Assembly: GCA_044892525.1 (NCBI GenBank)
Contig: CM097888.1
Location: 31,062,001 to 31,126,000, forward strand
Length of the DNA stretch: 64,000 nt
DNA from: Schmidtea polychroa
Lineage: Eukaryota
Direction of reading: 5' to 3'
The number at the start of each line of letters is the position of its first letter. The stretch's first letter is position 1. This document shows positions 5,661 to 34,306 of this stretch, one piece after another. The translations under genes and the position numbers were made by a program. The notes beneath the pieces are model-generated. The model was not told the DNA's origin, searched no databases, and was given only the letters and a program-made list of their open reading frames with translations.

Positions 5661-5947
5661 CAACAATTTGCCTCTGGTCCAAGTGAGGTCTTTGGATTGG
5701 TCTACATGTTTACGATGCGGCCGGAGAACAATTTATTAGTTATTCGACTATCAACGAGACACATTTCGCAATTTAAACATTTATTATATTCAATCCAGTT
5801 CTAGATACATTGGGAAGGAAAAGTACAAACATCCAACAGATTCACATTTCAGACACAGTATCACAATTCGTTCATCAAAAGATTCACAATAGTAATTTGT
5901 CAGACTAGAAGGGATTTGTGTTGAACCCTTCAGGTGGGTATTGGCGA

Positions 5948-6647: not shown

Positions 6648-8754
6648 TGTTCTTGAAAAATACTAAAAATATGCGAAATGGTTAAATTACCCCGATACAA
6701 TAATTAAGTTTCGCAAGGTCCCCCAAAAAATCTCTACTAAACCAATTCCCCTGGTCGGTTTATTTACCCCGCGAATTCCATACTATTAAATATTCGCCAA
6801 TTCTTCTGGATTTAAATGAGTAGGGACAGAGTCTCGATTGAGAAACAATTGAATAACCACACCTTTCTCCCGCATTATCCAAACCTAACTGTCGATTTGA
6901 AGTTAATTATTTAAATTTATTTTATCGACGGTGAATAATTGTGAACTTTACAAGGTTATCATTAATTTTCTTATTATTTCCTTTGCGGAAAAATCTTATT
7001 CAAATTTAAATGACGTCCAATTCAAATGCATAAAAGTTTCTATGCTTTACTATTCGACATTTGAGCAAGGAGATGTTAAAAAATAAAAATCAATTTAGTT
7101 AAAAATAATTAGGAAAATATCAGAAGATTTGTTATAAATTTATTTATTATAAATTCGTTTATGATAAATTTAATATAATTATAATATACACCTAATATAC
7201 AGATTTCGACTGGCTTGTTTACATTGCTTATTTAGATCAAATAAAAAAAAATATCTTCCGATGTGTCGCCTGAATTTGTGTAGAAATCCGGACTTATTTT
7301 TCTCCCGCTTATCGCCATTCGAAACGATTGGTTGCGGACGTTTCTGTCCGGGAATTTTCTCTAAACCGGAGTTATCGGTGGCTGATTTACCATAGGTTGT
7401 GTACTGAGTGTGAAGGTATAATGTGCAAATAATTCAACTTCGTGGTTATCCCTGTAATTAACTGTCGACTTCCCCGCAGAACATCCATCATTCACTCATT
7501 AAAGTACAGGTGAATTACGTAACCGGCGTAGTCGCAATTTATGCACACTGGCTGGATGAGTGGCGGAAAATTATGGGGATTCTTACTACGTGTGGGACGG
7601 GTGTGTTGCTGCTGTATTTCTGTTTATAGGTGTTTTAGATTTTTGGATTTCGCCGATGCCTCTTCACCAGCTGGGTTAATTAGCGAAAATTGTTTATGTG
7701 AAATGCCGAAATCTCGTTAATTCATCAGGTGTAGCTCTCGTTCTATGTTTGGCCGATTTTGATTCTTAGCGTTATCAGATGGGAGGCCCTGCCAAATATT
7801 GACAAGTCGATTGAAACTGGTAAGGTTTTTGTTTATCATATTATCTTGATATTACTACAGAGTTTACGATGGAAAGTATAGATAACCCGGCGGCAAGACT
7901 TCTCTACTAGTTGGCGGTTAAACCCGTTAAAGTACAACTCTATAGAAACCAGACAAGTAGAAGGTCAATCTCGATGGTTTAATCGCTTCTGTGAAAGGTA
8001 TTTCTTGACTATCGAATGCCTGAAGGGTATGAAATTCAATATCTCCTCGCGATGTCTCTCCTATTTCACGATGGCAATTTGCTTTTACCTACAAAAGATA
8101 CAGATGGGTCATTGCCATCACCGAGCCAGAGAACCTATCGTTTCCACATATTATGTCAGATTTTATCCACACCCAACTACCCACTACGCTATCACTATAA
8201 TCAATCATACAGCAAGACGATCTGAGCCCTATCGATGCGAGCATCAACAGTTCCAGACGTCCTCCCAGCTAATCAATCATCATCAATAAGTAAATCGAAG
8301 TAATAATAATAAAATTTATATTTATAATATTAATAAAACCTAGACTATTCCGTCACGGTTACTGTACTACCGCTACCTTATAATAGATATCCACTTGCTC
8401 TGCTGAAAATGCCGAAACCTCTATTACACTTCTCTAGTCACAAAATCCAACTATCCCGACTAGTTCTATTCCATCTTATCCGATCCTCTCCGGCTACATC
8501 TCGACTGGCTAAATATTTCTTCTGCTCCCTTCCTCCGGGTCATAATCCGGTTACTCAACCAAGTTCGTGAATACAAGTGTCATTCTCCCTCACGCTACCC
8601 TGCATACACATTCCATCGGCTCATCAGCACTTCATGAATCTCCGGATACTGCTATATAAATTTCTTCAAAATCTGTCTATACAACCATCCGTTCGTTGCT
8701 GTCATTAACAAACGCTATTGATAAGGTTTTTGTATAACATAAGGCGGTTTATAA

Positions 8755-9164
8755 TGTGGTTAAATTCAGCGCGCCGTCAAAAGACTCTCTCCGAATTATT
8801 CCCCGAAAATCCTTCTGTGAATTATTCCCCGTAAATTACTTCTTAAAATCCAAAAGAAACACAATTCAGCGACAATACGTTTATTAACAATTAAATATTT
8901 TAACAATTATATTTGAATCGATACATTATCAATTTCCAACATTAAACTTAAGAAAAAACCCGATCGTATGAGTCGCCGCGGTGGCAACCATTAAAACAAA
9001 CATCAGAATAATAATATTACAAATATTTTAACATTTTAATTCCAACTTTCTCATAATGCTCCCTTGCACTCTACAACACAAAATATTAAACCTTTCAACA
9101 TTCGAACTATAATCAGTTTTAAAACATTTAATTATAACAAACTTAAATGACCCTTTTACTCACA
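8755..9164 (-). repeat. 3' LTR (410 bp)
   Basis: Direct repeat of 10481-10890 with 2 substitutions. Confidence 0.95.
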
Positions 9165-9196
9165 TCCCCCCGAGTTTGTTAAGTAAGCACACACTC

Positions 9197-9925
9197 TTAT
9201 TCGTTGCATGCTCGTATATTTTTAACATGCATACATACCCCATCAACAGAAACATTCCATGCCGAATTTACATCTGTTACCACACCTTCTCTCCACTCAT
9301 CCATGCAAGTCGCATCACCACCCTTTACATGAACGACATCACCAACTCGAAACTTTCCACTCGTTTCATTGTCCCGATCTCTTTCAACATTTTCGTCATT
9401 CAACTCGTATGCATATATGGAAGCAAATGGCACGGAGCATTCATCTTGACCCTCGCGCGGCGACGCATTATACCAAAACAGCATTTCTTCCACAGTTCCC
9501 CGCGTTCGAGCCACCATCCTTTTTATTGTCCTGTGGTTACGTTCCACAATTCCATTTCCAGAAGATTCATACGCACATCTATACATATGCTTTACTTTCC
9601 ATTCATCACAAAATTTTCTCAATGCATCGCTTTTAAACGCTCCTCCATTATCACTAAGTAATTCTCTGCAAAACCCTCTTTCGAACATGGTCTTTCTTAT
9701 CGCATTCAACACGCTTCGTACACTTTCATCTTTCAACTCATGCCATATTGCATACCTCCCGGGTCCGCAGTCCACTACCGACAAATACTTCTTTCCCTCC
9801 AAATGCACAACATCCACTGCTATTCTGACCCACGTGCCACCCACGCTCAACTCACCTTTCGGCATTCTACACGCATGCGGATCAACGGTAGCACACTTAA
9901 AACAATTTCTCACGACCGCCTCCAC
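9197..9925 (-). CDS. Retroviral-type integrase core (rve); N-terminal His pair of the HHCC finger deleted
   Basis: CFKC, RIAVDVVHL, LLSDNGGAF, SSGNGIVERNHRTIK give the D-D-E triad. Confidence 0.9.
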   Translation of the reverse strand: MEAVVRNCFKCATVDPHACRMPKGELSVGGTWVRIAVDVVHLEGKKYLSVVDCGPGRYAIWHELKDESVRSVLNAIRKTMFERGFCRELLSDNGGAFKSDALRKFCDEWKVKHMYRCAYESSGNGIVERNHRTIKRMVARTRGTVEEMLFWYNASPREGQDECSVPFASIYAYELNDENVERDRDNETSGKFRVGDVVHVKGGDATCMDEWREGVVTDVNSAWNVSVDGVCMHVKNIRACNE

Positions 9926-10337
9926 GTCCTTTCGATTCTATTCCCGCGCTCTTCACTAATCTCTTCAAGTTTATGGCATACAAATCTACCTTATCACTCA
10001 CACATTTCAAGTTGACAAACATTTCATACGCTGTATATTTGTTTATGCCAAATGTTTTACGCAACGCCGATTCCACACCCCCTTTCACGTCTCGTTCTTC
10101 CTCAGACATATTCATATACACGCTGAAGGCCGAACCATCCAACAATAGCGGCATAATGCGTCTCGTGTCTTTAATGCCTTGCACATCGCACACCATTCTA
10201 ACTCGTTCCAACCATTCCTCAACATCCAAACTCCCATCATACTTCGTCACAACATTTAACACCCTTATAGACGACTTCACCGCGTCTTCATCCCGAATCC
10301 CCCCTTCATTCATTCCACTTTTTACTTTACTTGTCAT
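9897..10337 (-). CDS. Gypsy gag N-terminal fragment, running out of frame into the integrase at the deletion junction
   Basis: LDVEEWLERVRMVC..MPLLLDGSAFSVY..ALRKTF resembles retrotransposon gag; junction near 9930. Confidence 0.75.
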   Translation of the reverse strand: MTSKVKSGMNEGGIRDEDAVKSSIRVLNVVTKYDGSLDVEEWLERVRMVCDVQGIKDTRRIMPLLLDGSAFSVYMNMSEEERDVKGGVESALRKTFGINKYTAYEMFVNLKCVSDKVDLYAINLKRLVKSAGIESKGRGGGREKLF

Positions 10338-10468
10338 TTCAAAACAATTTATTTTAAAAATCGAATTTTTAAATTGTTTTTAATAATTAAATGTTCTCAA
10401 TACTTTTTACAAATCAAACTATTGAAAAGCTATATTATGTATCATTCAAAGTACAAAAAAAATATCTT

Positions 10469-10480
10469 GCCCGGATAGCT
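10469..10480 (-). promoter_or_regulatory. Primer-binding-site position complementary to nt 1-12 of tRNA-Lys(UUU)
   Basis: The + strand reads GCCCGGATAGCT directly abutting the 5' LTR, identical to the 5' end of animal tRNA-Lys(UUU). No canonical TGG-type PBS is present. Confidence 0.65.
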
Positions 10481-10890
10481 TGTGGTTAAATTCAGCGCGC
10501 CGTCAAAAGACTCTCTCCGAATTATTCCCCGAAAATCCTTCTGTGAATTATTCCCCGTAAATTACTTCTTAAAATCCAAAAGAAACACAATTCAGCGACA
10601 ATACGTTTATTAACAATTAAATATTTTAACAATTATATTTGAATCGATACATTATCAATTTCCAACATTAAACTTAAGAAAGAACCCGATCGTATGAGTC
10701 GCCGCGGTGGCAACCATTAAAACAAACATCAGAATAATAATATTACAAATATTTTAACATTTTAATTCCAACTTTCTCATAATGCTCCCTTGCACTCTAC
10801 AACACAAAATATTAAACCTTTCAACATTCGAACTATAATCAGTTTTAAAACATTTAATTATAACAAACTTAAATTACCCTTTTACTCACA
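10481..10890 (-). repeat. 5' LTR (410 bp)
   Basis: Direct repeat of 8755-9164. Confidence 0.95.
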
Positions 10891-11989
10891 TATAACAACT
10901 CATATATTCAAATAAACTTTTCATACAAATTGAACTAATCTGGATCATGTATTCCAATAAAGTCTTCATAATCATATCATTCCAAACAGTATCATTGAAA
11001 CAAAATCACCCTATTGGCATAATCAAATCATTTCTAGTTAATACAATCGACACCGTGAATTACTAAATCAATAAAAAATATGATCGAAATGAATTACCAT
11101 ATTGGTATAACTAAATTACTTTTAATTAAAATGATTGAAAGAATAAAGAACAAGCTTATACTCATGTTATAATTACAAATTTAAAATGAATTAAAAAGGT
11201 GCTTGTAGAATTCATACGTTAACATCTAAATCAACCAAATAAATCTTACATTGTTACTAGTTAAGAATTGAATTGGTCGTCTATATCGAGTTAATGGCTG
11301 TAAGTCGTCCCGTGGATAATAGTCCTGAATTATAATTTTAATACCTGAGAGAATAAGCCGCTCGGTTTTCTTATATACTGGATTCTGTCCAATCAGAATC
11401 CAGTGCGGTTGTATAATTTTATTTTTATTCATTTTTTCTCTTTTATTCTTTTCTTATGTTTTTCTTTATTATTTTTAGCGATTTTATTAGTAAGTAATTT
11501 TTCTATTCCTATTTTCCTTTCTTTGGTTGATTTTTGAGTTATTTTATCGCGTTTTCTCACTTATTTGCATTTCCTTAATTATTATTACTAATTTTGGGTT
11601 GGATATTATTATTTTAATTTTTCTTGCTATCTCTTTCTATTATTTTTAATATTTTTCTATTATTTTCCTTCTTAGGTAATTGTTTTGGATTTTTTATTAA
11701 ATTTTTCGCTATTATTTTTCTATTCTTCCTTTCTCCTTGGCTAATTCCCTCCCCTAATTCTTATTCCGTTATTTGTCTGGACCTTTATATTTATTGAAAA
11801 TCAGCCCAACAAATCACTCCGGGGCCCGTTAAAATTGCAATTTATAATTCTAGAGCAAAATTAAAAAAAAATAATACAAAATCACGTGTCGAGTTCACAC
11901 ACTACCATTCAAACATATGTCATACACACACAAAAGTTAAAAGATAAAAATTATATTGATAGTTAAAGGGAAAATATAAGACAAGCAGA

Positions 11990-13440
11990 CGTCACTTAAG
12001 GTGACCAGGTTTATGTACAGATAGTTCATTGTTAATTCGTGTCACATACTCAAATTGTTCAAAATGTTGTTAATGCAGTTGCCGGTTGGCTTTCGAAATC
12101 CTTTCGGGAGCTTTGGATTGGGTGAATTGACAACGTTGTTGAAGCAGTGGGTTGGATTGTGGCATGTACATTGTTGGAAGGTGGATTTTGTTGTGGTTGG
12201 TCAATTTGGGTTGGTTGTTGGAATCGTACAGTCCTCTTCGGTATGTTTCTTGGTTGCGGATTCTTCTTTGTTGGTTCTGCGAACGATAGCTGGTTTCTCT
12301 GCCATGTCTGGTATAGTTCATATGATCTCCAGATGATTAATGTACAGATGATGAGGGTTTCGCTGATTATAGTATAGAGCCAGACATGGCTCTCTTTCGT
12401 TTCCTTTTCTAGGGTGGTTTCTTTTTGTGATTGTTGAGTGGCTTGTTGTTGCAGGAGGGTTTCTAGTTGCTCGATTCCTTGGTTTTGCAGAATGAGTTGC
12501 GCTTGAATCTTTTGCCAGACGGATTTTTTCCAGCATTGTTTTCAAATGTGGTTGTAGGGCTTTCTTTCGTCTCTCAATTTAGTTGTTGGCTCTTGTTGGG
12601 AAATCTGATTTTCTGTAATCTTCTGGCTTTCTTGGGGTAGCTGCTTCATCAGAGTTTCATTTATTATTTCTACTATTATTACGAGGGTTGCTCCGGACCA
12701 CATACTACTATACATATATTTTATACACAAATATTTACATTGATTTCTCTATCTTTATTTATCGGAGGACTTTCTTTCTCGGATAACTTCATTATTTTGG
12801 TCTCCGCTTTTATTACCCTTTTTCTCAATTCGGGCAACATTTCTAATTGTCTGTCTTTTTCGTGTATTTGCTGTTTCAGAGTTTCTTTTAACATATTTAT
12901 CTCTTGTGTTGCTTTATCTAGGTTTTTGTGGTTCATTAATTGTAGGAAGTCGTTTTCTCTTTTCTCGTCTTACCCGTCTCTCTTTTCATCGTCTATTTCT
13001 TGATATTTATTATTCATCTTCCTCATTATTTCGCATTCCCTTTGTTTTTGGTGTAACTGAAGTTGAAAATCTTTCAGACTCTCTTGGTGTTTCCGTGCCT
13101 CGGTTTTCCAGTAATAGTTGATTACATCATCTGCCTTTATACTCGCTCTTTCCTGCCAAAATTCTTCCGTGATCTACTCCCAGTTTTTCCCTCGCTTTCT
13201 TTGTTCGTGAAGCCATTCGTTTTCCTCTTCTACTTCTTTCTTTACTTCCTCCAGTAAATTATATTCTTTTTTCAGCACTTTAATCATTCTTCGGTTATCT
13301 CTCCATCTTTCTATTAATCTTTCGTTCTCTTGTCTTGTAATTCTTCCTTGATAGTTTTCTTTCGCTCTACTTCTTCTATTTCAATTTCTCCTTCTAATTC
13401 GATTATTAATGTTATGGTGGATTTTCTATATGGTGGATAT
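11990..13440 (-). pseudogene. Decayed long coiled-coil plus transmembrane ORF (retroelement accessory or env-like)
   Basis: E/K/Q-rich frames interrupted by stops and frameshifts. 12730-12058 is one frame with a single TGA and contains the hydrophobic segment VWLYTIISETLIICTLIIW followed by a P/Q/T-rich tail. Confidence 0.5.
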
Positions 13441-13619
13441 ATATATGGTTAATAGTGCGCTATAGGGCGACTTATACATATACAATTATTTTCTGGAATA
13501 TAGTTTCCAACTTAAATGGCGGGTTACACTCCCTTTACTACTTTTATTGTACTATTAATTTTTTTGTTTGGGATACAGCTCCCGATTTTGTACTTTTTTG
13601 TCTTTTTATTAATTTTATT

Positions 13620-14403
13620 TTATACAAACGTTTCCTCCTGACCCCCGTATCCTTCGTCGCTTTCAACTAATGACTCCAAATGTATAGCGATTTGGTCGTG
13701 TGGTAGATAGTACCTTGGAAGTTGAGCCCTCAGCTCGTGAACTTCATCTCTAAGCGCCCTTGAGATGTTCAATTCCTCATTTAAGAGATACGTGATAGTA
13801 CTGGATAGTACTATGTTTCGTTGCTCCAGTGCTCCTTTATAGCCATTGTTATCCCGTTCCAGCTCCGCTACTTTGTTTACTAATTCTACTATCCTTCCTG
13901 ATTGTTGCAGGATCATTTCCTCCATGGCTATATTTTCTTGTTCTTTCAAGGTTATCTTCATTGCTAAGTGTATCTCGAACTCCATTGCCTTTGTTTGCCA
14001 CGTTTGACTACGTGCGGCGATTCTCCTGAGTTTTTTCAACTCTTCTTTTTGATTGAGGTTTTCCTCCCATTTCTCTTGCTCGTTATCGAATCCAAATTTT
14101 TGAGGCAGTTCCTTCATCTCCTTTTTCAGTTCTTTGTTTTGTCGCTTACATTTTCTGGCTTCTCTCAACAGATGGTTAGTTTTTCTCCCTTCTCTTTCTT
14201 TTTCAATTTCTCGTTTTTTATTCTAGTCTGTCAGTCTGGACTCTTTTACCAACTGCTTTAAATAGTGTCCGTGTGCTTCTTGGCGGGTATTCACTAATGC
14301 CCACCATTTTGCGGCTCTTTTGCAGGCCCCTGCCTCTGCCATCAAATTTTGAATTAACCACTGGGATTGATGGAATTCCCATTCCCTTGGACTTTTTGTT
14401 CAA
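13620..14403 (-). pseudogene. Coiled-coil ORF (~260 aa), one frameshift
   Basis: ORFs 14403-14218 and 14168-13620 join if one T at ~14220 is removed (..DRLE|KKREIEKERE..LREARK..). Heptad-rich. Confidence 0.55.
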
Positions 14404-15965: not shown

Positions 15966-18284
15966 CAAAAAAGAATTTTATAATATTATCTTCACATAAC
16001 TCAAACAATTCCATATGTAGTTCGCTAGGCGCCTTTGCGATATCAACTAGATGTGGTTCAAATGCTTATCTCATTGTGATACTATGTTCTTCAAATTCAG
16101 AAAACCGTTGAGTATATTCTTCAATTAATGAGTCCAAAACAGCAATATAATCTTGAAATGTTGCACTAGCAGATTTCTGCTCATTTAATACTTTTTCTAA
16201 TTGCGGATAATGCTCTTCCGATCGAGAGAAAATAGTTTTGAAAAATAATATCTTTTTTCGAAGACTGAATTTTTTGCCAAATATCATAAATATGTTTTGT
16301 TTTACCTTGCAAAGAAATATTTAAATCATTCTGCTTTACCATAATATCACACAAAAATGCAGTATTTCTGCAAAAATTTTAATCTAGTAATTCGCATTAT
16401 TGTTTGTTCCTCATAAAATCTTATAATTTGTTCTCGCAATGATAAAACTTTCACTAAAACGTCCTCTTGATAAACATCGAACTTTGCAATGATACGGCAA
16501 ATCTACACTGTAGGTATCATCGTCGGACATAAGAAGGTTTCGAAATTGGCGATGTCGTGTTGCATTTGCTCTGATGAAATTGACAATTACAATAATTTTT
16601 TCTAGAGTATTGTTTAAAGAAGTGGATTTAGCACAAAGATTTTGTTGGTGCAATATTCAATAAAATGAGATTAATAATTTTAAATTTGCATTGTCCTTTT
16701 TTAATAATGAAACGAAACCTTCTCTTTTCCATTTCATGTAAGGTTCACCATCAGTATATACACTCACCAGATTATTGTTGGGCTAGAACTGACTTCATAG
16801 ACCCAAGTTTCTAATTGTGACCGAAATGTGTAGGTACACTGCATGCAAAAAGCAAAAAGTATAGTTAAATATTAAAAACCACACCAAATAAACAATAGTA
16901 ATTAAAGGAAAAAACAACAAAAACCTAAAACACAGAAATTAAATAAAATTCATACAAAAGCAAGCAGTTATGCCAAATCTAACTCAAAAATAACCAAATA
17001 AACATAGAATTACAAAAAACAAACTCGAATAACTTAAAAGATGGTAAAAACAGCAAAAAGTTCCAGAAAAACCCAGAACATTCCATAAAAATGGCGACGA
17101 CCATCACAACGGCCATCTAGAACAACAAAAGTTAGAGAAAATAAATAAATTAGTATTAAAAATAAAAAATCTTAAAAAGAAATTCATGAAACAGCAGTTA
17201 AAATGAAAATTGTATTAAAAAATAAAATAGAATGTTCTGGAACCGTTCCAAATCCATCATGGACGTAAAATTAATGAAAAATAATTAGAAAATAAAAATT
17301 TAAAAATAAAAACAAAAATTATAGCACTAAAATTTCCATTAAAAATATCAAAATCACGAAATAGAAAATTCTGGAATAAAAAGAATTCGAGTTTGTTTTA
17401 ATGCATCAATACATACACGTGTACAAAATAGGTATATATACCGACGCATTTTGGTCACAAAAAAATCTTTTTGTATGCCAAAAATTTTCGTAACAAATTT
17501 GGACAACACCGAAAGTAAGGACTGTTGTTTGTATGTATTTTTCATTGTTATATTATTATTCTATTTTATTATATTGATTTGCATTGAATTAATTTTTTCT
17601 TTTTTTTCATTTATCCTACTATCACGAAATAAGAGTGACCAGCATTGTGAACAGGTTATAGTCACCATGCTGATCAGCCTTGTTTCCAACTAATAGTTCA
17701 CATGCACAAATTCGGGTCTACGACCCCACATGCATAAAAATTTAAACATTTTTTATTAACCGGAGGTCGCCACGAACAAATGGTTCTAACCAGGAGTAGG
17801 GCGGTAAATCCATACCGGTAGTTGGCATAGTCATAGGGACTATGCGGGCGAAATAAACTTCGGGAAAGTAATCGCGGGAAACATAACACAATAAGGCCTA
17901 TCGTACCGTATTCAGTTGAGTCTGGAAAGTAGGAAAATTTTAATTAATTCGACTTTTCAGTAAATTACATGCTTAAAATAAACACTCAACCATGCTATAG
18001 GAGACATAACATTAGGAAAATCTAAACGGGAAATATCCCAGACTCAATGTACTTCAAAGACACTCCGGTAGTCGGCTAATTGCACAAACCATTCGATTAT
18101 TTGGTGCACTTAATATTGAATATTATTAATAGACGTTGTCGATTGTATTTATAATTATATTGATCAGAAAATTAGTACTCAATGGCCCGAATCTAAGAAA
18201 AATTCAATTTTATAATCATATAGTTTACAATGAGCTATTGAACGTAATATCCGGATTATCGGGAGGATAGACATTAAATCTTAT

Positions 18285-18640
18285 CATTATCATTTAATAT
18301 TATTTAGATACTATAAAATTCTAAATCCATTTATTGTGTTATTGTCATTAATATTATTTAAATACCATAAAATTCTAAATCCATTTTATTGGATTATTAT
18401 CATTTAATATTAATTAGATACTATAAAATTCTAAATCCATTTTATTGGATTATTATCATCCAATTTAGATACTATAAGATTCTAAACCCATTTATTGTAC
18501 TATTGTCATTAATATTATTTAGACATCGTAAAATTCTAAATCCATTTTATAGTAGTATTATCATTTAATATTATTTCGATATCAAAAATTATAACCCCAA
18601 TTTACTGCATTATTTTCATTTAGTATTATGAGATTGCCAA
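18285..18640. repeat. ~55-bp AT-rich tandem array, about 6 copies, inside the LTR
   Basis: The unit core CTATAAAATTCTAAATCCAT recurs at 18311, 18365, 18421, 18472, 18527 and 18582. Confidence 0.9.
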
Positions 18641-19763
18641 CCCCTTTTTATGGTGTTGTTATCATTCAACATTGTTTGGATGTTGTCTCAAATTACCAAT
18701 CCGATTTAGCTTATTTATTAATATTAGAGTCAAAGGATGTTACAATTAAATCAAGTAAATTCTCTCTATATTGGCCTTAGCGAGACCCTTAACCTAAAAC
18801 CCCACCCTAGCCTACCTATTGAGTACATACCTCATCTAACTAATTTATTGATTTATTGAAATGCTACTATAAATAGAAAATTCGAAATTAACCTTATTGA
18901 TTTTCTTTCCCTCATGATAAGAATCAGCCAATGGGACCACTTCTATTAATAGCAACCACCCTACGAACCAAAAGGGACCTCGTCAAACTCATTCTGGCTG
19001 ACCAAATGGGCGATGCATACGCTCTTCTAAATGCGCCAATCACTGTCGACCATGTCATTCGGAACTCTGATTTTCGTGTGAAACCTATCACACCCACGCG
19101 AAGCTAACCCAAGTTACCCCAGTAGTCAACCCATACACGACAGGAAAGACAAAGGACCCTTCTCCTTCCTTTTGCTTCTACAGGATTAGCTGCCTAAGTT
19201 AAGATATAAAACCATAACCCAGAATAATAATTAGCCAGCGGTTTATGACACTTTACCATAAATTCATGAATTACTTTAACGTAGAGAAAAGTACTAATAA
19301 AATTACCCAATAATTGTTGCATATTGCGAATCATATGTTATATTGATAAAAGGATTAATGAAATTACCCAACACCAGTTCATAAAGTGGTAGGATGAACA
19401 TTAATTATCTGGTTAAATTTGCCAAAATGTGCTAACCAACAAGATCTCAATTCCTGAAATCAGACAAGTTAAAGTCAAACTCCCTCTTACCCGTTAAGTA
19501 TCCGTTGTAGAGCAAGCCACTTACAACCATCCTGGTCAAGGACTCGCAAAGGGCTGAATATAAATTCAGGCCAGTTGAAATATCCGTTTCCAGGATGAGT
19601 CTTAGTAGCACGATTTGATGATTGAAAAAAAAAAATTACCAATAGATAATAAGATTAAATTATAAAGATGAAAATTCACATCGGATTAAATGCGAATTAA
19701 TATTTAAAGTGACGTAATTTGATATAAATAAATCAAATAAATCTTTGAATGATTTAAACAACC

Positions 19764-19980
19764 AGTATCGGAGGTTTAATTGATAATATTTTAAATATTT
19801 ATTTTTACTGCGTCAACTATATCGGAAGTTTAATTTATAATATTTTAAATATTTATTTTTACTGCGTCAACTATATCGGAAGTTTAATTTATAATATTTT
19901 AAATATTTATTTTTACTGCGTCAACTATATCGGAAGTTTAATTTATACTACTTTAAATATTCATTTTTACTACACCAACC
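19764..19980. repeat. 54-bp tandem array, about 4 copies, inside the LTR
   Basis: TATATCGGAAG starts at 19818, 19872 and 19926, with a variant near 19765. Confidence 0.9.
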
Positions 19981-20221
19981 ATTTATTCATCAAACATAAA
20001 ACAATGGATCCCCAATTTAAATGTTCTGTATTTTCCTATCCGTTACTTGTAGGCCTCGACTTTCACAACTCCCAAGTCAACCTACCTTTAACTAAAGAAC
20101 CGAACACGGAAATTATTTGGCAACTCGAACCTGAATGAAATAGTGTATAAAACGTCTGGGGGTAACTGGATATAGAGGAACAAAGGAAAATTTCCCTAAT
20201 AATTCTTTTAATTTCGTAGAT

Positions 20222-20698
20222 ATGCATAAGCTCGGATCAGAAGACGGCCACGCGAATCCCTTGGCATCCGCGGTAAGACGCAACCTAACTCCAGAAGAGG
20301 CAGGTGAGGTTACCAGATTGGACCTACCAGTGGTCCCCGTAATCCCGAAGGTGGAGCCTTACCTTAATCGCGCGTCATTAGCTTTGATAGACGCCTTTGA
20401 CGAGGTGACGGTGGCGATAGACCGACTACGCCGGCTCGAGAAAGCAACTTTGGCTGGTGAATTAGAAGACTGCGACGGCTACGCTCGAGCCCAATGTCAT
20501 CCGAAACGAACTGCAGCTCTTCAACGTGGATTGAAATACCCAAGACGGTTTCAACGAGGACCGGGACGACCGAGGAAACGCGGACGCACGCAAACGTCCA
20601 CCCACTCGACCAAGGAGAGTGCGGAATCGGAGGCTAGCGGAAGCCATGTGACTAACATTGGCGCGGGGTCCAGACGAAAACCTCGGGATAGAAACTAA
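20222..20698 (+). CDS. LTR-encoded ORF-A, 158 aa, with AT-hook-like basic motif
   Basis: Intact ATG-to-stop ORF; TATAAAA near 20149; GPGRPRKRGR; homologous to 32813-33052. Confidence 0.6.
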   Translation: MHKLGSEDGHANPLASAVRRNLTPEEAGEVTRLDLPVVPVIPKVEPYLNRASLALIDAFDEVTVAIDRLRRLEKATLAGELEDCDGYARAQCHPKRTAALQRGLKYPRRFQRGPGRPRKRGRTQTSTHSTKESAESEASGSHVTNIGAGSRRKPRDRN

Positions 20699-21090
20699 TC
20701 ATTCTGTGCTGACCTTAGAGTCGGGTGTATTATGTGATGTTATGTACTGGGTTAAACATCTTTAATCCAGGGTCGAATATTATACATTATGTCTTGTTAG
20801 TTCATAATTATTTGATGTTTGTTTGCGTTTGATGACCGATGACCACCCGATTGTAAAGATTGTCTGATTTTTAGCGATATACATGACGTGGAGTACCACC
20901 AGTTGACCACAAACTTCCTGCAGCGTTGCCTTGACAGCCCTACCAGGTTGGGGAGGCCACATGGAACTCGTTTTTGAGTACGTTTGGCGGAGGGTTGCGA
21001 CGAGGTGATTACTTCGTTTAACATCTACACTTATAATAGCGCTCAACCCTCGATGCTGGTGTAAAGATTATTGACGTTATCTCGTTTTAG

Positions 21091-21469
21091 TGCAGAAACT
21101 CCTGGAAGAGATGCGAGCAGATAGAGAACGGGCACAACGACAGGCAGAAGAATACCGGACCAAGTCGACACGAGTCAAGGCCCACTGTCGGAACTTCGAG
21201 TGCACCTGGTTCCCCCAGCGGAAATGCAGAAGAAGATGAAGTTGATCACTCAACTACAACTTCAGAATGCACAAGACCAGATTGAGTTGCGGGCCCACCG
21301 CCTGAGAATGAGGGAGCTGGAAGTCAAGGTGCACCAACAGGACCTGGATCGAGAGGTCATTGCCACGATCCGGCCCTTGGATGAGTTGCTCCGTCGAACG
21401 AAGAAGTGCACCCCAACAGCAGTAATCCCAAGGAAGAAGGTTCGGCTGGGCAAAGCGGCGCGAGAATAA
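21091..21469 (+). pseudogene. LTR-encoded coiled-coil ORF-B exon, 1-nt frameshift in a C run
   Basis: After the acceptor TTTTAG: KLLEEMRADRERAQRQAEEY..CRNFECTWFP|PAEMQKKMKLITQLQLQNAQDQIELRAHRLRMRELEVKVHQQDLDRE. Confidence 0.65.
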
Positions 21470-21659
21470 GACAAGCCAGCCAGGCCCAATTAACTCTCCA
21501 TTCTACTGGATCAGAGGCTACCCCAAGAGAATCGACCAGGAAACCTTAAGTTGTCTATGTGGTCCGAATAAATCTTTACTGGTGTATCCGTGTCTGTACA
21601 TTTTGATTTTTTTTTGGTGTTGATTATTGCCACGGGGACGAAAAGAAACCGGACATAGA

Positions 21660-21867
21660 CCTTCTATCGGTAGTCCGTGAACCCCAGTGGGCACTAGACA
21701 ATTATAGTATGTTAAGCATGCTCACTTTTTGCTAGTGCCCAAACCCTTGATACAGTACCAACGTTGATCGCTCAACGGGTATCAAGTGGTCAGCTATAAA
21801 TTGTATTCTGGGTTACGCTGGAAACAGCCCGAGGAGGTAAAGATTTTTCAGTACCTGTAACCCACCA
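21660..21867 (+). ncRNA. Conserved structured RNA at LTR 3' end (U5), copy 2
   Basis: Stems GGGCACTAG/CTAGTGCCC, CTTGATAC/GTATCAAG with an ACCAA bulge, and GGGTTAC/GTAACCC enclosing GCTG-GAAA-CAGC and AGGTA/TACCT. Confidence 0.75.
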
Positions 21868-23881
21868 TTATCAAGATTTAGTCCTTCTTCACGATATTTT
21901 TCTTTAAAATTATCATGGATATCAATTCCACAAGTTCTTCCGGTAAGTGTGCCCAAAGCCATTAGTTACTCATAACACTGAAAATATTCAGTTATAGCAC
22001 GAATAAAATATAATATTTAAGCCGAGTCAGTTTTATCAGTGGATTCATCCAATGCTATTGAAAAATATACCTCCTTATTTTGAATTATTGTGCGAAGCTG
22101 TTCTGTCACATTATAAGCTAATTATAAGCTAAACTATAAATAATAATAACTCCAACCAATTACGAAATTAAACTAAATCATTTGCAGTTGCTCAGCAACT
22201 GTGTTTTACCGCAAAACGAGGCCTACTGTGTTTATCTTATAGAAAAGTAACCGAAAAAATATTTGAAAAATATTATTAGTATTAATAATTATTTCAAAAA
22301 TTTCCACAAAAAGAATTTCAATTGTAATTTGTAATAAAATACAAAAAATGTGAAAGAGCCGCATGCGGTCTTAAGGCCGCAAGTTCCCCACCCTAATTTT
22401 AGTGTGCGAGTATGTGTTGGTGCATTGATTCGGTAAAACAAATTTGAATTATTATAATTCTACTTAATTCTAATTAATTTTATTTTCAAAATGTCATATT
22501 TTATTTTTAATTGAATTTGCCGCCATGATGGATATGGATATTTTCTAGAATATTCTAAGCTGTTTAATGATCCACTAGCGGCCATGGTGGATTTCATTAT
22601 TATAGAATATTCTATTTTTCTGTTCATTTCTGCTATAATCTTATATCCCTATTTGACTTTTTGAATATATTTTGTGGAAATTTTCCTAATTTTTATTCCT
22701 ATCTCTCCTTATCGCCAATAATTCAAATCTGCCTACTTGTATTATGTATCTAACTTGTGTTTGACAAGATTTCAAGTAACACATTGGTTTCATATTAGTT
22801 TATTTTTGTGTTTACTAATTTTCTGTTGAGTGAATTCTATTTATCTGTTTAATTGGTGGTTGGGCGTGTTTGATTTTAACTCTACTTAATGTTATGCCTG
22901 CCTGTTATGTTCCTAAAATTAGGTCTAAAATTAGGTCTAATGAGGTAAAATGAATTTCGAGGACAAAAATTTTTTTAAAAGGGGGGAGATATTTGGGGTT
23001 GTAAATTTAAAAAGTATGTAATTAAAAATGGAAAATTGGAAAATTCAAAATCAAGAGATCAACAAATTATCTAATTCAAATTTGACAAACCAGTCAATGT
23101 TTTTATAAATGATAAAATTCAGGTAGTGTTGGACGGACATCGACAACAAGCAAAGTGTAGCCTTCAAAATTCAATAACCAAACCAACATCAAATGAATGC
23201 ATGATGAGAATTAAACATTGCAAGCAAAAAACCAACTCTGACCGGTGACATATCGTATTCATCGAAAATAGACATATTAATCTTCATAATAATAAATTCG
23301 TTTAGAAAATTTATCGCTGCGGCTTAGAATATTGATAGAATTGTTACTTTCATCAGTTATTGAGATTAAAATAATTTAGATGAGTAGGATGCCAATTGGA
23401 ATGGCCATAATTACAAATATGAACGATATCTTAACACAATTGCTAATGAATAGATTCTCTTTACAGTTTAATGATAGAATATTGTTTTTTACACATAATA
23501 ATGTCAATACATCTTGTATTGTGATTATTCGTGTTCTCAAATTAAATTGTCCTTCCTGTGATTTGATAGGTTGAGCTGTTGCACTACTGATGGGAGAATT
23601 GGGATATAAGAGTATGGTTGTTTTCAGATGACTTGACAAAATTTTAACAGAAGAAAACGAGAAAAATTAAGAAAAATCAAATAGAAAAAAACAATAAGCC
23701 GACGAAATCATACGCGCAATATTTTGCAGAAAAGAGAAGCCGAATGGGAAAAATCATTGTTGTAGAAAAAATGTGAAAATCCAAAATTGGGCGAGGACAG
23801 GAAATGAGGAAATGAGAATATATTTGATGGAAATCGAATGGTAATTCAATACGAAGCTAGCCGAATTATTAGTGAGGAAAA

Positions 23882-26369: not shown

Positions 26370-29300
26370 TGTTGTGAAGTTTAAAGTTATATACTTATAT
26401 ATTTATATAATTATTTTGAAGGCATCCAATCCCTGGAACCCCGGAATTTTTTTTTCCGAAATCCCGGGATTAAGATTGTCAGAATACCGGGATTCGGTAC
26501 CAATTTTTAATTCATTTTATTTGCATAATGCGTAGCCAATTCGGTTTCATCCCCTGAGTTATTTTTAAATTCTTCTTTTATCAGTTGCCGTATATTACAT
26601 AACATGCGCACTAGAAAGAGTATTAATGAACGCCAACGCAATACAACCTCGATAAATATGTTATTATGCATGCTCATTTTAATGAATAATTTCTATATTT
26701 ATTTTTGGCAAATGAGAATGAAACTTCCTAAATGAATGACATGAGAGTGAAAAATGGACATCACTACTCTTGAATACACCTAAATCCGAAATATAAAAGT
26801 TTCTATAATACATTTTGGTGTGTGCATCAGTGGGTTACTAACCATTTATGAAAGTGAAGTTTAATATTTATTCATTTATTCAATTTTTTGGAGAAAGGGC
26901 ATGTAAAAATTTAATCAATTTGACAGGAAGAATATTATTTCATTGCTTTTCCTTCTAATCAGCAAGGAACAGCCATGTCTGAAAAAAACATCCAAAATTT
27001 TGCAGAATGTAGCCAAAATTTGATTGAAAAAACTCGAGTGTGGGAATATATTTTACGTGCTAAATCAGGCGAGTCTGGCAAGTGTAAAAATGTCATAAAA
27101 TTTTGAAAATGACGGGCAGATTGACAAGCGGCCTTCATAAGCACATCGCAAGTCACTCCATCGTGATAAATCAGGTCGAAAGACCAGCCTCTGACACTTT
27201 AGGAGTACGACCAGCAAAATGCAATGACCCACAAGCCTATAGGAGCAAAAAAATTATCACTAATTATCTTGTTGTTCATTACGATAGCTCTCTGGAAGCA
27301 GTATTATCCTGTATGACAGCCTCCGATGGATTACCATTCAGTTTTTTTATAACATCGGTGGAGGAACGCAAATCACTGTCGGCTCGTGGATTTGACGTAC
27401 GAAAATCAACTACTTTTATTCGCACCATGGTCATGAAGTATGGCCGAATGATACATCAAAAATACAAGCTTGAAGTCTCGGAAGAAATTCACTATCAGCT
27501 TTGACGAATGGATTTCATTCAAGCACCGTCGATATTTGAATCTAAATGTGCACATTCAAAATAAAATTTGGGATTCAGGATAGGTTCGAGTGCGTGAATC
27601 TAAGCCCACAGAAAGCCGCATCAAACTTATTGAAGGAAAGCTGGAGTTTTTCGGATTAAATTAACACTAAGGTATTGTATGCACCGTGATGGATGGTGCC
27701 GCTCCAATGGTAAAAGTGGGAAAATTACTTTCTTGTGAGCAATAAATATGTTTTGTACATGACAAACACATGGCGGTTTGTGGATTTCCTTTACACAAAA
27801 CCTGTTTCTACACCAATTATAGAGGTTGATGATAACGATGACAGCGATTCAGACAACGAAGGTGAATATGACGGATTTCAAATTGTTTGCAAAGAAGATG
27901 AGCCAGAACTTACAGATTAGCTTTATGTATTCATCGGTAAAGTACTGTCTGTTGCCAAGCTATTTCGTCGATATCCGACAAAAACGACATTCTTCAGAAA
28001 TACATCAAAGCAGAATTCGGAAAAGAAGTTCAGTTGATGATTGATGTAAAGATACGATGGAACAGTCTTCTTTCTATGCTGGATTATTTCATTGGAGTTA
28101 AAAACTGCATTTTAAAATCGTTCATTGATCCTGGTTCAAGTATTTCATTTGAAGAAGAATTAAGCATGATTCAAAATTTGGTAACAACACTTGAACCAGT
28201 AAAGTTAGCTGTGGAAGCACTTTGTCGTCGTGACGCAGCACTGCTGTCAGCTGACAAAATGATTTGATTCATGATAAATAATTTTGGCAGCCGTTCAGCT
28301 GAAGGAAACACTTTCACGTCGATTGAATCAACGGTGAACCAAAAAGGCAACCAAAATTATGCAGAATTGGAGTTGGATCCTATCCTAAATTTTGAATGTC
28401 TAAACAAAGCGAAAAGTGTTTCTATGGTTACTGGTCTGACAAAGCCATCTGATCGCAATTAGTCATTTGAATCCGAATCGGACAGTGAGGCAGCTGAAGG
28501 AGAAGTCGAATCACAGTTGTCCATGCAGGAAAAGCTCCCCAGAGCATCAATAAGGAAATGAATTCCAAAATAATTTCCAAATCACGAACAGCGAAAGAGG
28601 ATATTTCAAGATGGAAGCTAAATGAATAAATAAACAAAAAAGACTTAATTTGAGTTCATCTGTTTGTACCTAATTTCATTTATTATTGTTTTAAACAGTG
28701 TTTTATTTATGAATTAAAAAATTTGTGTAAACATGTGGTTATTTAAATTTTGGGAAAAAATTTTGAAATGTTGCCAAAAGATTCAATACCGAAATCCCGG
28801 TTCTGGAAAAATGGTCCGGTACTAGATGCCTTAATTATGTTTATGTATTTATACTGATATTTATGTGTTACAAGAAATTTGTGATAACCCAGCAGTCTCC
28901 TTTAAAACTTACTTTGGGACTTCTGGGGTGATTGTATGTAGAGTATATAAAAATAAATTTTATAATAATTAGAACAAATATTTACTTTAACTTAAAATAC
29001 GAAAATAAACTAAATTATGTTATTAAACTTTTATTCAACAAAAAGATCAAAAAACTTTAATCACCTAGGGTTCCTTCTAAATTGTGCTTTGGTTATTTTT
29101 CAGGGTTAGGTTCATGAAACGTTGGAATGTTGCAGCTGCATTCCGCAAACCGAAAGGTATTCTGTTATATTCGAACAAACCAATTGGTGTTATGATAGCT
29201 GTCTTTTATGTCTTTCCTAATTGTAATTCGGTGATAGGTCTTTTGAAGGGCTATTTTTGGCAGGGGGTAGTTGTCTGCTTCTGTGATCTTATCTAGCATG

Positions 29301-31622
29301 CTGTAGTCGCCACAAGCTTTCCATTCCCCGTTCGCCTTTTGTTTGAGCATTAGGGTGGAAGATAATTCTGAGTTTGAATGTTTTACTATTTTGTTGTCGA
29401 GTAATTCTTTGAAAATTTCTTTAGTGTACTGGGTTCCCCAATGTTATGATTGAGTGTTCGGTCGGGTTGTCCGAATTCTAGTTGAATGTTACTGGTTCGG
29501 TTAATTTATTAAAATTTTTTACTAGTCGAGTTATTGCGGGACCGTGATTGGCTGCTCTGTTTTTATTGGTTGAGGATTGTTTGGATTACTCCAATGTCAA
29601 TTTGAGGGTAGTAATTTGTTGTTGATTGTTTTCGTTTTTGTGATGGGGTTTTCAACTAAATCTGTATTTCTGCAGTCTACTTGTAAGTTATAGTGTGATA
29701 AGAAATCAGCACCGATTATTGATTGTTGTACTGCGGTTAGAGTAAACGACCAGGTGTACTCTTCGTGGTTAATTGTTATAGTCATTATATGTTGTCCGAA
29801 TGTACTTATGTTGTTACCGTTATCTGCGGTGAGTTTGTTATTTGTTGTTTTGAGGTTTTTGAACATTTTGTGGGGTAATATGGAGACCAGTGTCAATCAG
29901 AAAATTATTGTTTTGTGATTGCACCATGAACTTTTTATTTTTGTCGCCAAATGTCGGTGCGATTAATGGCGACTTCATCAGTTTTCCTGTGTTTTGTAGT
30001 TGCACGGGTTGTTGCATTTGTATGCTTTATTCCCGAACTTTGGTGGTAGTAGGAAATTTCATCTTTATTTTTGTCTGTGATGTTAAATGAGGCTTTGTGT
30101 TTTCGGTTTCGTGAATCTGACTGATTTCTGTTATAACGGTTTTGTGAAAGATTGTAGTTTTGTCTTAAGCATTTTCCTTTTATTTCGGCGAGTTCACGTT
30201 TAATTTGTTTGTTTCAATTATTACTTCATCGAATTTGCTGATCAGTGTGTTAATGAGGTTGGTTGTGATTTCGATTGTTTCAAGATTTTTGTTCTTATTG
30301 TTTGGTGGTTAGTCGTTGTGGTATGATTGGTTTTTGTACTGATTTTGGGTGCTGTAGATTATGGGGTTAATTTCTTCATTGATTTGATTTGGTATGTCCG
30401 CTAATGTTTGATGTCTGCGGCTAAGATTAATCGTATTTCTTGTGGTATAGCGCGTATGAATAATACTTTAATTAGCTTGTTTAATCCTGAACTGGTGATG
30501 TTTGGTTGTAGTTGTTCCAGTTTGTGCTTTAGTTGTCTGAGGAAATCGGCATGTTAGTTGTCCCCTATTTGTGTGTTGTTTAAGCAGGACTCCAGCATTT
30601 GTCCTTTATTTATTTTATTTTTTGATATTAGTATGTGACAGTTTGTTGTATGGGTTCTCACTTTTTGAGATTTCGTTTATTTGGTCTGCAATTTCGTTGA
30701 GTTTGTTGGGGAGAGCTGCAATTATGTTTGAACACAGGGCTTTTGTTGATTTTACGCCTGATAGTGTTAAAGCTAGTTTTGCGAAGTCTAGCCATTTTTG
30801 AGGCGTTCCATTTTCATTGATGAAATAAGTATGGATATTCGGTTTGGGTTCATAATTGAATTTATAGAAAATGGGTTAGTTAATGAATTGAACTGGCGGT
30901 TGGTGTTGTCATTCGTTAATGGAATATTTTCTTCACTTATGTTTGTGAATCCATTGGATATTTGGTTATCTTCTTGCCAAAATCGGTTGTTTGTGTTTGT
31001 TTGCATTGATTGGTGATGTTTGTTTGCATTTTAAAAAGAATTGTTTTAATCAAGGATATGGCTTACTGTGTTCAGCCTAAAGTGCTACTATTCTTTATAC
31101 ATCTACATTAGGTATGCTAAAAGCGTTAGTGTTTTTACGAGTGTATTTTGTATATTTTTGCTCCTGACACCAGTTATGTTGTAAAGTTTAAAGTTATACT
31201 TATATGTTTATATAATTATGTTTATGTATTTATGCTGACACTTATGTGTTACCAGAAATTTGTGAGAACACAGCAGAATCTCATTTAAAACTTGTTTTGG
31301 AATTGCTGGGTGCTTGTGTATGTAGAGTATATAAAAATAAATTTTATAATAGAACAATTAGAACAATTAGAACAAATATTTACTTTAACTTAAAATACGA
31401 AAATAAACTAAATTATGTTATTAAACTTTTATTCAACATAAAGATCAAGAAGATTTAATCACTTAGGGTTCCTTCTAATACGAATCCAACAAAAATAAAA
31501 CCCGAATATGTTCCAATTTCAATCTTTCAATCTTCGCTATTTATTGTTTAGTTTTTGGTTTATTTCTAGTATCTTCTTTCTGTGATAATAAAATATATAA
31601 AATTATTATTGTTATATTAACA
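26370..31622 (-). mobile_element. Decayed Gypsy retrotransposon (CsRn1-like gag), 3' LTR split by a hAT insertion and partly deleted
   Basis: 5' LTR 31177-31622; 3' LTR 26370-26417 plus 28834-29080. PBS TGGTGTCAGGAG (tRNA-Leu type, 31172-31161). Gag ..KFGNKAYKCNNPC, protease FLIDTG, RT ACGDYSMLDKITEADNYPLP. Probable TSD ATTAT, in low-complexity context. Confidence 0.85.
26418..28833 (+). mobile_element. hAT transposon with BED-finger transposase pseudogene
   Basis: TIRs (G/T)AAGGCATC; 8-bp TSD ATTATTTT/ATTATGTT; VWEYI..KCKNCHKILK..TSGLHKHI BED finger; SLSFDEW, RWNSLLSML, LEPVKLAVEALCR. Confidence 0.85.
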
Positions 31623-32702: not shown

Positions 32703-34306
32703 AGGTGGGGTATCTGGAGTGCACATGAATCTGGAATGCACATAACTATCTACTGGCATCAAGGGGCGAAGATGGAGAAAGTCCGATGGTTCTCGTAAAA
32801 CAAGAGATGAGGAAGAGCCCAGCCCTGACTGCTCAAATCTAAGCCATCTCGAACATCGGGCTTGCTATCACCGGCCTCAGACGAATTGAGCAAGACATTC
32901 GCACGGGCGAATTAGAGAACCCCAATGGAGACGCCCTCGACTCACTGAGCATCGAGTGGTGGAAAACAGTTCCCGAACTGCAAGGACAGACCGGCGCGAA
33001 TCCGCCGAAGTCTAAAACAGGGCCCAGGAAACGAGGGTGGCCCCGAAAATGACTTAGAGGAATTGAGTTCACCGGAAGGCACCTCATAAACCGGCATTTG
33101 TTCTTCCTAGCCTTTCTTGGCTAAATGAATTTTTTTAGATGTTAATAAAGTATTGTTAGATTGTTTGTGTGTGTTGGTCGAATACAGATTATCGTCAGCA
33201 GAGTATGTTGAACGAACTTGAGAGGTTTGCAATGAGACCATGGGAAGAGTGAGTACCACTGTTGGGTGAGAATGGCTGGTGGAGCACCGTATGGGATGAA
33301 AGGACTAGATGCGCTAGAATTGGGAGTGAAGATGAGACGTTGTAACATACTAATCGATCAAACCGGATCTAAAGTGTGAGTAGAGTATCGGGGACCAATG
33401 GGTATATGACGCACGACCATGATTAGGAGGGATGCCAGCGGTAAGTGCTGAAAAGATAATATAACATCAGAATAGATGTCGAATTTAATACGATATTAGT
33501 ATAAAACATTCTGAGTTTCACTAATTTTGTTATTTAGTGTTAAAACTGCTGGAAAACTTACGGAGCGACTGAAAGGAGGCACAAACCTAGGTAGAAGACC
33601 TACGACAGAGAATCAAAAAATTCAAGGGGCAGTGCAAGGAGCTAGATGGGACTTGGTTTAGGCCCGTAGAGATACAGAAACGCATGTGGCTTATTCAACA
33701 GTTACAATTACTGAGCTTACAAGACCAAACAGAGACCCGGGCGCTCAAACTACAAGTTCGGAGTTGGAAACTCAACTTCACCATAAAAACCTCGACAGAG
33801 ATGCCGCAGATCGGATACGCCTAGTAGTGGTCAAACCCGCCGGCAAAATCCAGTCGACCCAAGAGGAAGCAACCGGGTCAAGATACCCGTGACAGGATTA
33901 AAAGAGCACACGTGACCACTAAGGCCAAACAAAAAAAGTGGAGAATAACTAAAAGATTAAATTTTTTCTTGTTGGTTGCATGAATAAATATTTTGTGGTT
34001 GGGGAACACTTTAGTTGAAAGATATGATGAATGTTGTGAAGTCTACTAACGGGAAATCAATCCAAAATTAGGAACTGTCTAGAAAATCTGACGGAAGCCT
34101 TTTATCGGCAGGCCGTGGACCCATGCGAGTACGGGGCATTTATAGTATGCAGGAGCATGCTCACTTCTTACTGGTACTCAAGCCCTTGATAAAATACCAA
34201 CGTTGAACACTCAATGGGTATCGAGCGGTCAAACACACCATTGTATTCTGGGTTACGCTGGAAACAGCAGGACAAGTTAAAATGTGTGCTTACCTGTAAC
34301 CCACCA
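32703..34306 (+). mobile_element. Giant-LTR family copy 3, 5'-truncated
   Basis: ORF-A homolog 32813-33052; ORF-B homolog 33538-33892 after a GTAAGT..TTTAG intron (33441-33537); AATAAA 33983; U5 structure; ends GTAACCCACCA. The 5' boundary is approximate. Confidence 0.75.
34098..34306 (+). ncRNA. Conserved structured RNA at LTR 3' end, copy 3
   Basis: GAGTAC/GTACTC; AGTATGC-AGGA-GCATGCT; CTTGATA/TATCGAG; GGGTTAC-GCTG-GAAA-CAGC..GTAACCC. Confidence 0.75.

Follow-up and report, generated by a model that had tools for sequence, protein, structure and literature searches.

Introduction

A preliminary description of a 64-kb stretch of the Schmidtea polychroa genome (64,000 nt, hereafter the window) reported a covarying RNA structure of about 200 nt at the 3' end of four long terminal repeats (LTRs), which raises the question of whether this fold is maintained by selection and what it does for the element that carries it. 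To our knowledge, detailed accounts of structured leaders exist for just a handful of LTR elements, namely HIV-1, Ty1, Ty3, Tf1 and gypsy. Structured U5 leaders as such are already known; the case that is newly described here is that of Burro, and its function is what we infer below. Our literature search, which did not extend to the primary description of Burro, found no work on RNA structure in Burro LTRs.

Copies of the fold and the element that carries it

A covariance model of the fold gave exactly four strong matches in the window, the number that had been claimed (89-179 bits, with the next best match at 11.7 bits). The matches, the repeats to which they belong and their surroundings are as follows:

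5488-5670, minus strand: covariance-model match, copy 1
21638-21816, plus strand: covariance-model match, copy 2
34076-34256, plus strand: covariance-model match, copy 3
58161-58324, plus strand: covariance-model match, copy 4, which lay outside the training set
5412-11811, minus strand: copy 1, a 3' LTR from a truncated element of family B
5412-5670, minus strand: fold of copy 1
12798-14370: internal remnants of the copy-1 element
16776-21867, plus strand: copy 2 (the studied copy), a Burro-type solo LTR of family A with TG...CA ends
16772-16775 and 21868-21871: 4-bp target-site duplication of copy 2
21567-21572, plus strand: candidate poly(A) signal with a GT/T-rich stretch after it, a position that would place the fold in U5
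34076-34306, plus strand: copy 3 of the fold, family A, the 5' end of the LTR not being delimited
57457-58373, plus strand: copy 4, a solo LTR of 917 bp with a 4-bp target-site duplication
58161-58373, plus strand: fold of copy 4, with the apical part of stem II shortened

The fold forms the final 210 nt of the repeat 16776-21867, which, because it is a solo LTR, is a relic without a primer site. None of the four window copies (two solo LTRs, one 3' LTR and copy 3) is followed by a primer-binding site (PBS); the proposal that the fold lies just before a PBS therefore holds for full-length elements but for no copy in the window. The fold is present in all four copies, as had been stated. Copy 1 belongs to the other family, has a longer and different 3' domain and ends in ACA instead of CCA. 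Copy 4 is far shorter than intact LTRs, whose length ranges from 3.9 to 5.8 kb. A target-site duplication was also found in 13 of the 15 other copies that were checked at both ends. Exact copies of one terminal 16-mer of the repeat number 924 in the genome, and those of its 5' 17-mer 2,708. Canonical poly(A) signals lie near the window copies at 21567, 33983 and 58007; such a signal was present within 300 nt in only 58 of 77 family-A and 15 of 26 family-B copies, which are non-independent. The label U5 is given to the fold by its position and is thus a putative one.

The LTRs and the window have further features. The LTR of copy 1 includes a 411-bp direct repeat (8755-9165 and 10481-10891; 99.5% identical, 1,726 bp apart), which is a young nested insertion or duplication, and a second direct-repeat pair that is 86% identical occupies 28832-29080 and 31213-31478 of the window. 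Behind splice-acceptor-like sites, the LTR of copy 2 carries two short ORFs (20144-20698 and about 21090-21470), which recur at another locus (L151:3813-4175 and 4379-4855). One LTR ORF has an end that we take to be AT-hook-like and one is coiled-coil-like; Pfam gave no match for either, and a protein search found no homologue of the second.

Near-identical LTR pairs (99.3-100%) with 5' ends about 30 kb apart were found in seven of eight candidate pairs; one measured element is 35.8 kb long and has a target-site duplication, and the internal region of family B spans 22 kb. In a Pfam scan, the 4,250-aa ORF of the 35.8-kb element contained MATH, fusion glycoprotein, PR, RT, RH, IN and ankyrin domains. 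A second open frame has 4,732 aa. Accessory ORFs encode TRAF and BIR-RING, and the RING ORF had two close homologues in a protein search. The same domain set is given for Burro in the available part of PMC6431247 and, judged by its size and domain set, the element is a Burro-type giant Gypsy. Like Burro/GYPSM1, the planarian giant Gypsy-like LTR retrotransposons covered there, it exceeds 30 kb and has thousands of LTR copies, encodes a single giant polyprotein with an env-like fusion protein between gag and pol, and carries MATH/TRAF, BIR and ankyrin domains. The RNA structure, the long LTR-PBS spacer and the missing polypurine tract that we describe here go unmentioned for Burro in that part of PMC6431247. 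Burro RNA is expressed upon PIWI depletion, according to the available part of PMC8532177.

Two families can be distinguished: in family A, the LTR ends in CCA and is separated from the PBS by an 8-nt spacer, and in family B, it mostly ends in ACA and the spacer is 7 nt. The RT of one family-A and one family-B element was 92% identical, a blastn comparison of one LTR of each family gave no alignment, and the fold cores of the two families are 47% identical.

Several side observations concern the genomic setting of these elements. Some LTRs are inserted into or abut LTRs of the same group, in places end to end (loci L036, L044, L049 and L143). LTR-PBS junctions that are identical over the 340 nt compared recur every ~15.8 kb (loci L187-L191), which suggests a tandem array of a shortened element. 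A match to Rfam mir-753 that stays under the gathering score (locus L168:2237-2297, minus strand, E 4.4e-6) sits ~730 nt inside a family-B element, and this microRNA may be derived from or carried by the element. Sequence contigs from three runs that are presumably of RNA, and from one other run, cover parts of the LTR; the A-runs near the LTR start in these contigs may reflect internal priming.

Selection on the fold

The fold is real and is selected as an RNA structure at the LTR's 3' end. This was established on an alignment (A2) of 49 non-redundant copies out of 56 representatives, from which one spurious copy and others with deletions or odd ends had been dropped; all covariation data come from one genome. 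RNAalifold predicted 15 pairs on the 49 copies, 12 of them with double changes. Across 22 in-register pairs, 92.5% of cells were paired with 211 double-change cells, a score that none of 500 shuffles matched, and sliding the partners by one to three columns lowered the paired fraction to 30-41%. Because the copies are related, double changes were additionally counted on 24 edge-disjoint pairs of tree tips, which gave 17 compensatory changes compared to 2.2 (maximum 6) with mismatched partners. These results bear out the earlier statement that the fold is under selection. Per-pair tests on independent pairs had too few pairs and were underpowered. When the covariance model was used to align 86 distinct copies, 36 pairs were 87% paired. 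This alignment leans towards the model; many of its copies are old and decayed, and some were also in the training set. In the sequence alignment, the two families are shifted against each other in hairpin I and in the outer part of stem II (74% paired overall); in the family-A rows alone, 434 of 465 cells were paired. The helices are kept between families A and B despite the 47% identity of the cores and the failure of blastn to align the LTRs.

The preliminary description had allowed that the stems might be nothing more than inverted repeats in DNA. In such a reading the structure would act as single-stranded DNA, i.e., in the minus-strand strong-stop DNA, or would serve integrase as inverted repeats. 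The strand of the finding folds at z = -3.8, but the opposite strand is almost as stable (-76 kcal/mol, z = -2.3), A-C pairs are not rare (118 cells), and the spacer discussed below is also part of the strong-stop DNA. However, G-U cells (278) exceed A-C cells more than twofold and include one near-fixed U-G pair; counted by pairs, the ratio is 21 to 9 (p = 0.04). Plus-strand RNA is favoured over DNA because of this excess, although the bias is moderate and the minus strand also folds. Other RNA features are the GNRA-type loops, found in 24 of 26 family-A rows, and the internal loops, which are large and conserved; integrase requires only the terminal bases. We regard a DNA-level role as very improbable.

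The structure belongs to no RNA family that we could find, in line with what had been supposed: the Rfam search that was recommended earlier gave no match at the gathering score in the window and none on the fold at five loci with E up to 5. Outside this genome, the core pattern occurred in no viral contig and in six metagenome contigs, of which none scored with the model.

Anatomy of the fold

In the studied copy, the fold has the following parts, all on the plus strand:

21650-21677: hairpin I, with a 5-bp stem, an internal loop, a 3-bp stem and a highly conserved 7-nt loop (21662-21668)
21678-21684: unpaired 7-mer complementary to the 5' strand of the T arm of host tRNA-Pro (nt 50-56), a suggestive PAS-like candidate
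21689-21740: stem II (stem 1 of the preliminary description), with an outer 9-bp helix, an internal loop and an apical 6-bp helix
21706-21711 with 21717-21722: apical helix of stem II
21723-21725: conserved unpaired triplet in the internal loop of stem II
21746-21786: stem III (stem 2 of the preliminary description), with an 8-bp helix, an 8 x 1 internal loop and an apical helix of 5-6 bp
21754-21761: conserved bulge of stem III, i.e., its 8 x 1 internal loop
21801-21805: 5-nt arm, whose predicted partner is the first five bases of the LTR-PBS spacer of 5' LTRs
21809-21867: terminal domain
21809-21816 with 21857-21864: closing helix of the terminal domain, 8 bp
21817-21828: GNRA hairpin of the terminal domain
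Remainder of the terminal domain: variable third helix, then the last three bases with the integrase CA

The stems that had been proposed are present at or near the places given for them, with the strongest covariation in stem III, and several details have to be revised. What had been called the conserved loop of stem 1 is not a loop: the apical helix begins with its 3' part, and its 5' part forms one strand of the internal loop. The leader that was said to precede the fold exists but is itself a hairpin and starts about 10 nt upstream of the start given earlier. The changes at the junction between copies 2 and 4 are mostly one-sided wobble changes; true double changes are confined to the GNRA hairpin (3 of 26 rows). 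The arm at 21801-21805 has no partner in copy 2, which is a solo LTR. The terminal domain is near-invariant in family A and is longer and variable in family B; its third helix is complete in 11 of 26 rows and in one of seven 5' LTRs. By eye, the fold also contains what we take to be look-alikes of a K-turn, a T-box specifier, an epsilon-like element and a group I element.

Since the A2 rows had been chosen by anchor motifs, motif conservation was taken from the model-aligned set. In the 86 distinct copies, conservation reaches at least 90% in 29 of 108 unpaired columns. Among these are the hairpin I loop, whose motif is intact in 63 of 87 rows, the stem II triplet and the stem III bulge, whose motif is intact in 68 of 87 rows; the apical loops and the linker are variable. 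Such a pattern, in which unpaired positions are 90-100% conserved, would fit a fold that is mainly a packaging or dimerisation signal, with Gag binding the conserved loops or two genomes pairing through them and unspliced RNA being selected. In 16 of 18 family-B rows, hairpin I, with which the fold begins, has a splice-donor-like motif (A2 columns 17-22) that would confine the fold to unspliced RNA; the motif is absent from all 31 family-A rows. No self-complementarity of the conserved loops is visible by eye in the alignment, which speaks against this role. In retroviruses, packaging signals are usually found 3' of the PBS, whereas the fold lies 5' of it. Ty1 does have such signals beside its PBS, as far as the available part of PMC3592414 goes. 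Packaging would moreover leave unexplained the helix that reaches the primer site, and we consider it unlikely as the main function, though it is the strongest of the alternatives to priming. For the three upstream helices, the position beside the PBS fits packaging or dimerisation equally well.

The primer-binding site and a predicted helix across the LTR edge

The genome contains 557 LTR-PBS junctions of families A and B together. The PBS is an 18-nt match to the 3' end of the host tRNA-Pro(UGG) gene, counting the added CCA, and lies 7-8 nt downstream of the LTR, where the usual spacing is 2 nt. In 16 of 18 representatives of 5'-leader subfamilies, the terminal helix is predicted to continue into this spacer with an ensemble probability of at least 0.5. 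Of five possible pairs, the arm forms on average 4.1 with its own spacer, 2.0 with the spacer of the other family and 2.0 with 71 solo or 3' flanks; this count covers 15 of 19 rows, the other four having no arm in the spacer-free fold, and the arm is misplaced in several. The spacer helix has only 5 bp and is imperfect in several subfamilies. In these predictions, arm and spacer change in step between families A and B, which is essentially one evolutionary event with smaller changes within B. This pairing suggests a place in the 5' leader of genomic RNA, as with the U5-leader stems of retroviruses. Because the spacer partner exists only downstream of a 5' LTR, the complete fold would belong to that leader. 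A helix that is predicted to cross the edge of the 5' LTR and to pair with a 7-8-nt spacer ending at a tRNA-Pro PBS is the new feature of this element.

Two other ideas, a self-priming tRNA mimic and an origin from an LTR-less element or a DNA transposon, were dropped once 5' LTRs with their PBS at a distance of 7-8 nt had come to light. The former had been considered because 72 copies had no shared downstream sequence and a PBS at +2 occurs only at chance level (16 of 924 copies).

The gene for the tRNA-Pro primer is very abundant, with tRNA-Pro(UGG) genes in long tandem arrays of a 475-bp unit and 2,190 pattern matches genome-wide; arrays of tRNA-Lys and tRNA-Arg genes are also present (loci L273-L277, L278-L307 and L317 for these tRNA genes as a group). 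Complementarity of U5 to the rest of tRNA-Pro was weak and was equalled by 29 of 1000 shuffles for 7-mers and 93 of 1000 for 6-mers, uncorrected for several tests. In its best shared window, the T-arm-complementary motif was found in 11 of 18 representatives, which 317 of 1000 shuffles do as well, and the match is equally good for tRNA-Lys and tRNA-Arg; the motif is absent from one clade of family B. Four bases of the tRNA-Pro anticodon loop could pair with the stem III bulge, and many family-B leaders have a D-arm-complementary box. These additional tRNA-Pro contacts are suggestive and are to be seen as leads, not results.

Possible roles of the fold

Among the roles that had been listed for the fold, priming is the best supported, through the predicted helix across the LTR edge and the tRNA-Pro PBS. 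We propose, with about even confidence and partly by analogy, that the fold is a 5'-leader platform for placing the tRNA-Pro primer and for controlling when minus-strand DNA synthesis starts. The terminal helix would extend past the end of the LTR into the spacer and stop 2-3 nt short of the PBS. The integrase CA would sit within or next to an internal loop of this helix, which would also include the template bases that are copied first and would be encountered by reverse transcriptase in the opening steps of synthesis. Only the 5' leader would form this helix completely. The conserved unpaired loops of hairpin I, stem II and stem III may make tertiary, tRNA or Gag/RT contacts, and the 7-mer complementary to the T arm may act like the primer activation signal (PAS) of HIV-1. 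We favour the platform because the predicted helix stops just 2-3 nt short of the primer site and because HIV-1, Ty1 and gypsy offer precedents. In the available parts of the respective papers, initiation in HIV-1 is regulated via a U5-leader stem, an A-rich loop and a PAS complementary to the T arm (PMC1865047), Ty1 has extended tRNA contacts (PMC3592414), and gypsy has extra tRNA contacts or 5'-3' pairing (PMC1635307).

Control of RNA processing, be it suppression of polyadenylation in the 5' LTR or splicing and export of the 30-kb transcript with its accessory ORFs, is a quite improbable role. A canonical poly(A) signal is found most often in the 200 nt that directly precede the fold, the spacer helix is predicted at the 5' LTR only and could distinguish the two LTRs, and family B has its donor-like motif. 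However, the poly(A) signal is missing in several young full-length subfamilies and is not covered by the fold, and no splice joint was seen in the sequence contigs that cover parts of the LTR, in which ends, strand and level are not readable.

Internal ribosome entry (IRES) for translation of the polyprotein had also been suggested, and both the size and the multi-helix form of the fold are compatible with it; the gypsy 5' UTR of Drosophila carries IRESs (PMC1635307, available part). Yet 24 AUGs precede the first ORF, which starts ~720 nt past the LTR end, 45-97 AUGs precede the polyprotein, whose start is about 3-4 kb downstream, and no Rfam IRES matched, which makes this role highly improbable.

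The remaining suggestion was a ribozyme, to which we add a CCA-ended tRNA mimic that would form the 3' end of the RNA or prime itself. The end of family A, a GC-rich helix and CCA with a stacked GNRA hairpin, resembles such a mimic, and hairpin I, with its 3-bp stem and 7-nt loop, is presumably similar to P3/L3 of self-cleaving HDV-like ribozymes. Tymoviruses and the Mauriceville retroplasmid have 3' tRNA-like structures with, as in family A, a terminal helix and CCA. Unlike these, the fold has no T loop and does not keep the CCA in family B, and where it is complete the RNA runs on into the PBS. LTR 3' ends are CCA in 28 of 46 rows and ACA or GCA in the other 18, the third helix is rarely complete in 5' LTRs, as given above, and ARAGORN found no tRNA in the window. 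The hammerhead core motif occurs in two and an HDV-like P2 in none of the 49 rows, and there was no Rfam match with E up to 5, with hammerhead, HDV-like, twister, pistol and hatchet ribozymes included. Since a full tRNA PBS is present, self-priming is not needed. We consider a ribozyme or tRNA mimic extremely improbable.

The 3' end of the element

In one element of each family, the 60 nt before the 3' LTR contain no polypurine tract, the longest purine run being 3 in A and 4 in B. This has to be explained, because a purine tract serves as the plus-strand primer in Ty3 and retroviruses (PMC5371799, available part), and a literature search on elements without the tract brought only unrelated work. 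A hairpin and a conserved GC-rich motif are instead found a few bases before the 3' LTR at 576 junctions, in a pattern with fixed flanks and six free central bases. Compared by eye with the 3' end of the primer, the motif is identical at 8 of 9 positions in family A and 7 of 9 in family B. Its sites include the following:

11812-11830 of the window, minus strand: GC-rich motif upstream of the copy-1 LTR
Loci L146, L150, L152, L244 and L318-L327: further GC-rich motif sites without a polypurine tract

Through G-U pairs the motif can pair with the PBS in both families. The duplex of the 5' and 3' junctions reaches -33 and -31 kcal/mol, with 3 and 8 of 500 shuffles as good, and is partly the ordinary end repeat of the LTR; with the PBS alone, the motif does not rise above shuffles (123 and 128 of 500 as good). 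Burro might prime both DNA strands without a polypurine tract, with the U5 fold and the 3' motif as one end-joining platform. The plus strand would then start from the motif or from a second tRNA-Pro, and the 7-9-bp overhangs beyond both LTR ends would be trimmed by integrase. This reading is put forward because of the missing purine tract in both families, the 576 motifs, the mirror-like spacing at the two ends and the junction duplex, and we hold it to be quite improbable.

Comparison with known systems and significance

The closest likenesses are to the U5-IR stem of retroviruses (PMC3601003) and the PBS domain of HIV-1 with its PAS (PMC1865047), both known to us from parts of these papers. 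As in these retroviral U5 leaders, a helix between U5 and sequence flanking the PBS is predicted here; the U5 motif complementary to the T arm of the primer has a candidate counterpart here, although not universally, and a bulge may be able to pair with the anticodon loop. There is no sequence similarity to the retroviral stems, three further covarying helices are present, and the sequence with which U5 is predicted to pair is the spacer between LTR and PBS, 7-8 nt long instead of the usual 2. The leaders of Ty1, Ty3 and gypsy, in the available parts of PMC3592414, PMC5371799 and PMC1635307, similarly have structured RNA beside the PBS, and their extra tRNA contacts and possible pairing of the genome ends have suggestive counterparts here. 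They differ in having an extended or bipartite PBS, whereas the present element has a full 18-nt PBS, and Ty3 and gypsy have a polypurine tract, which this element lacks; the 3' motif is complementary to the PBS itself and not, as in those leaders, to the tRNA.

Natural variation has provided a short list of conserved loops that are open to testing. The fold model detects LTR families that are no longer alignable and so aids the annotation of these genomes. The predicted helix across the LTR edge links the leader with LTR-internal sequence and may be the reason for the spacer's length, and the missing polypurine tract questions plus-strand priming, a step that is treated as universal for LTR elements. 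Taken as a whole, the analysis offers a leader model backed by covariation for an env-bearing animal retroelement that is abundant and appears to be still mobile.
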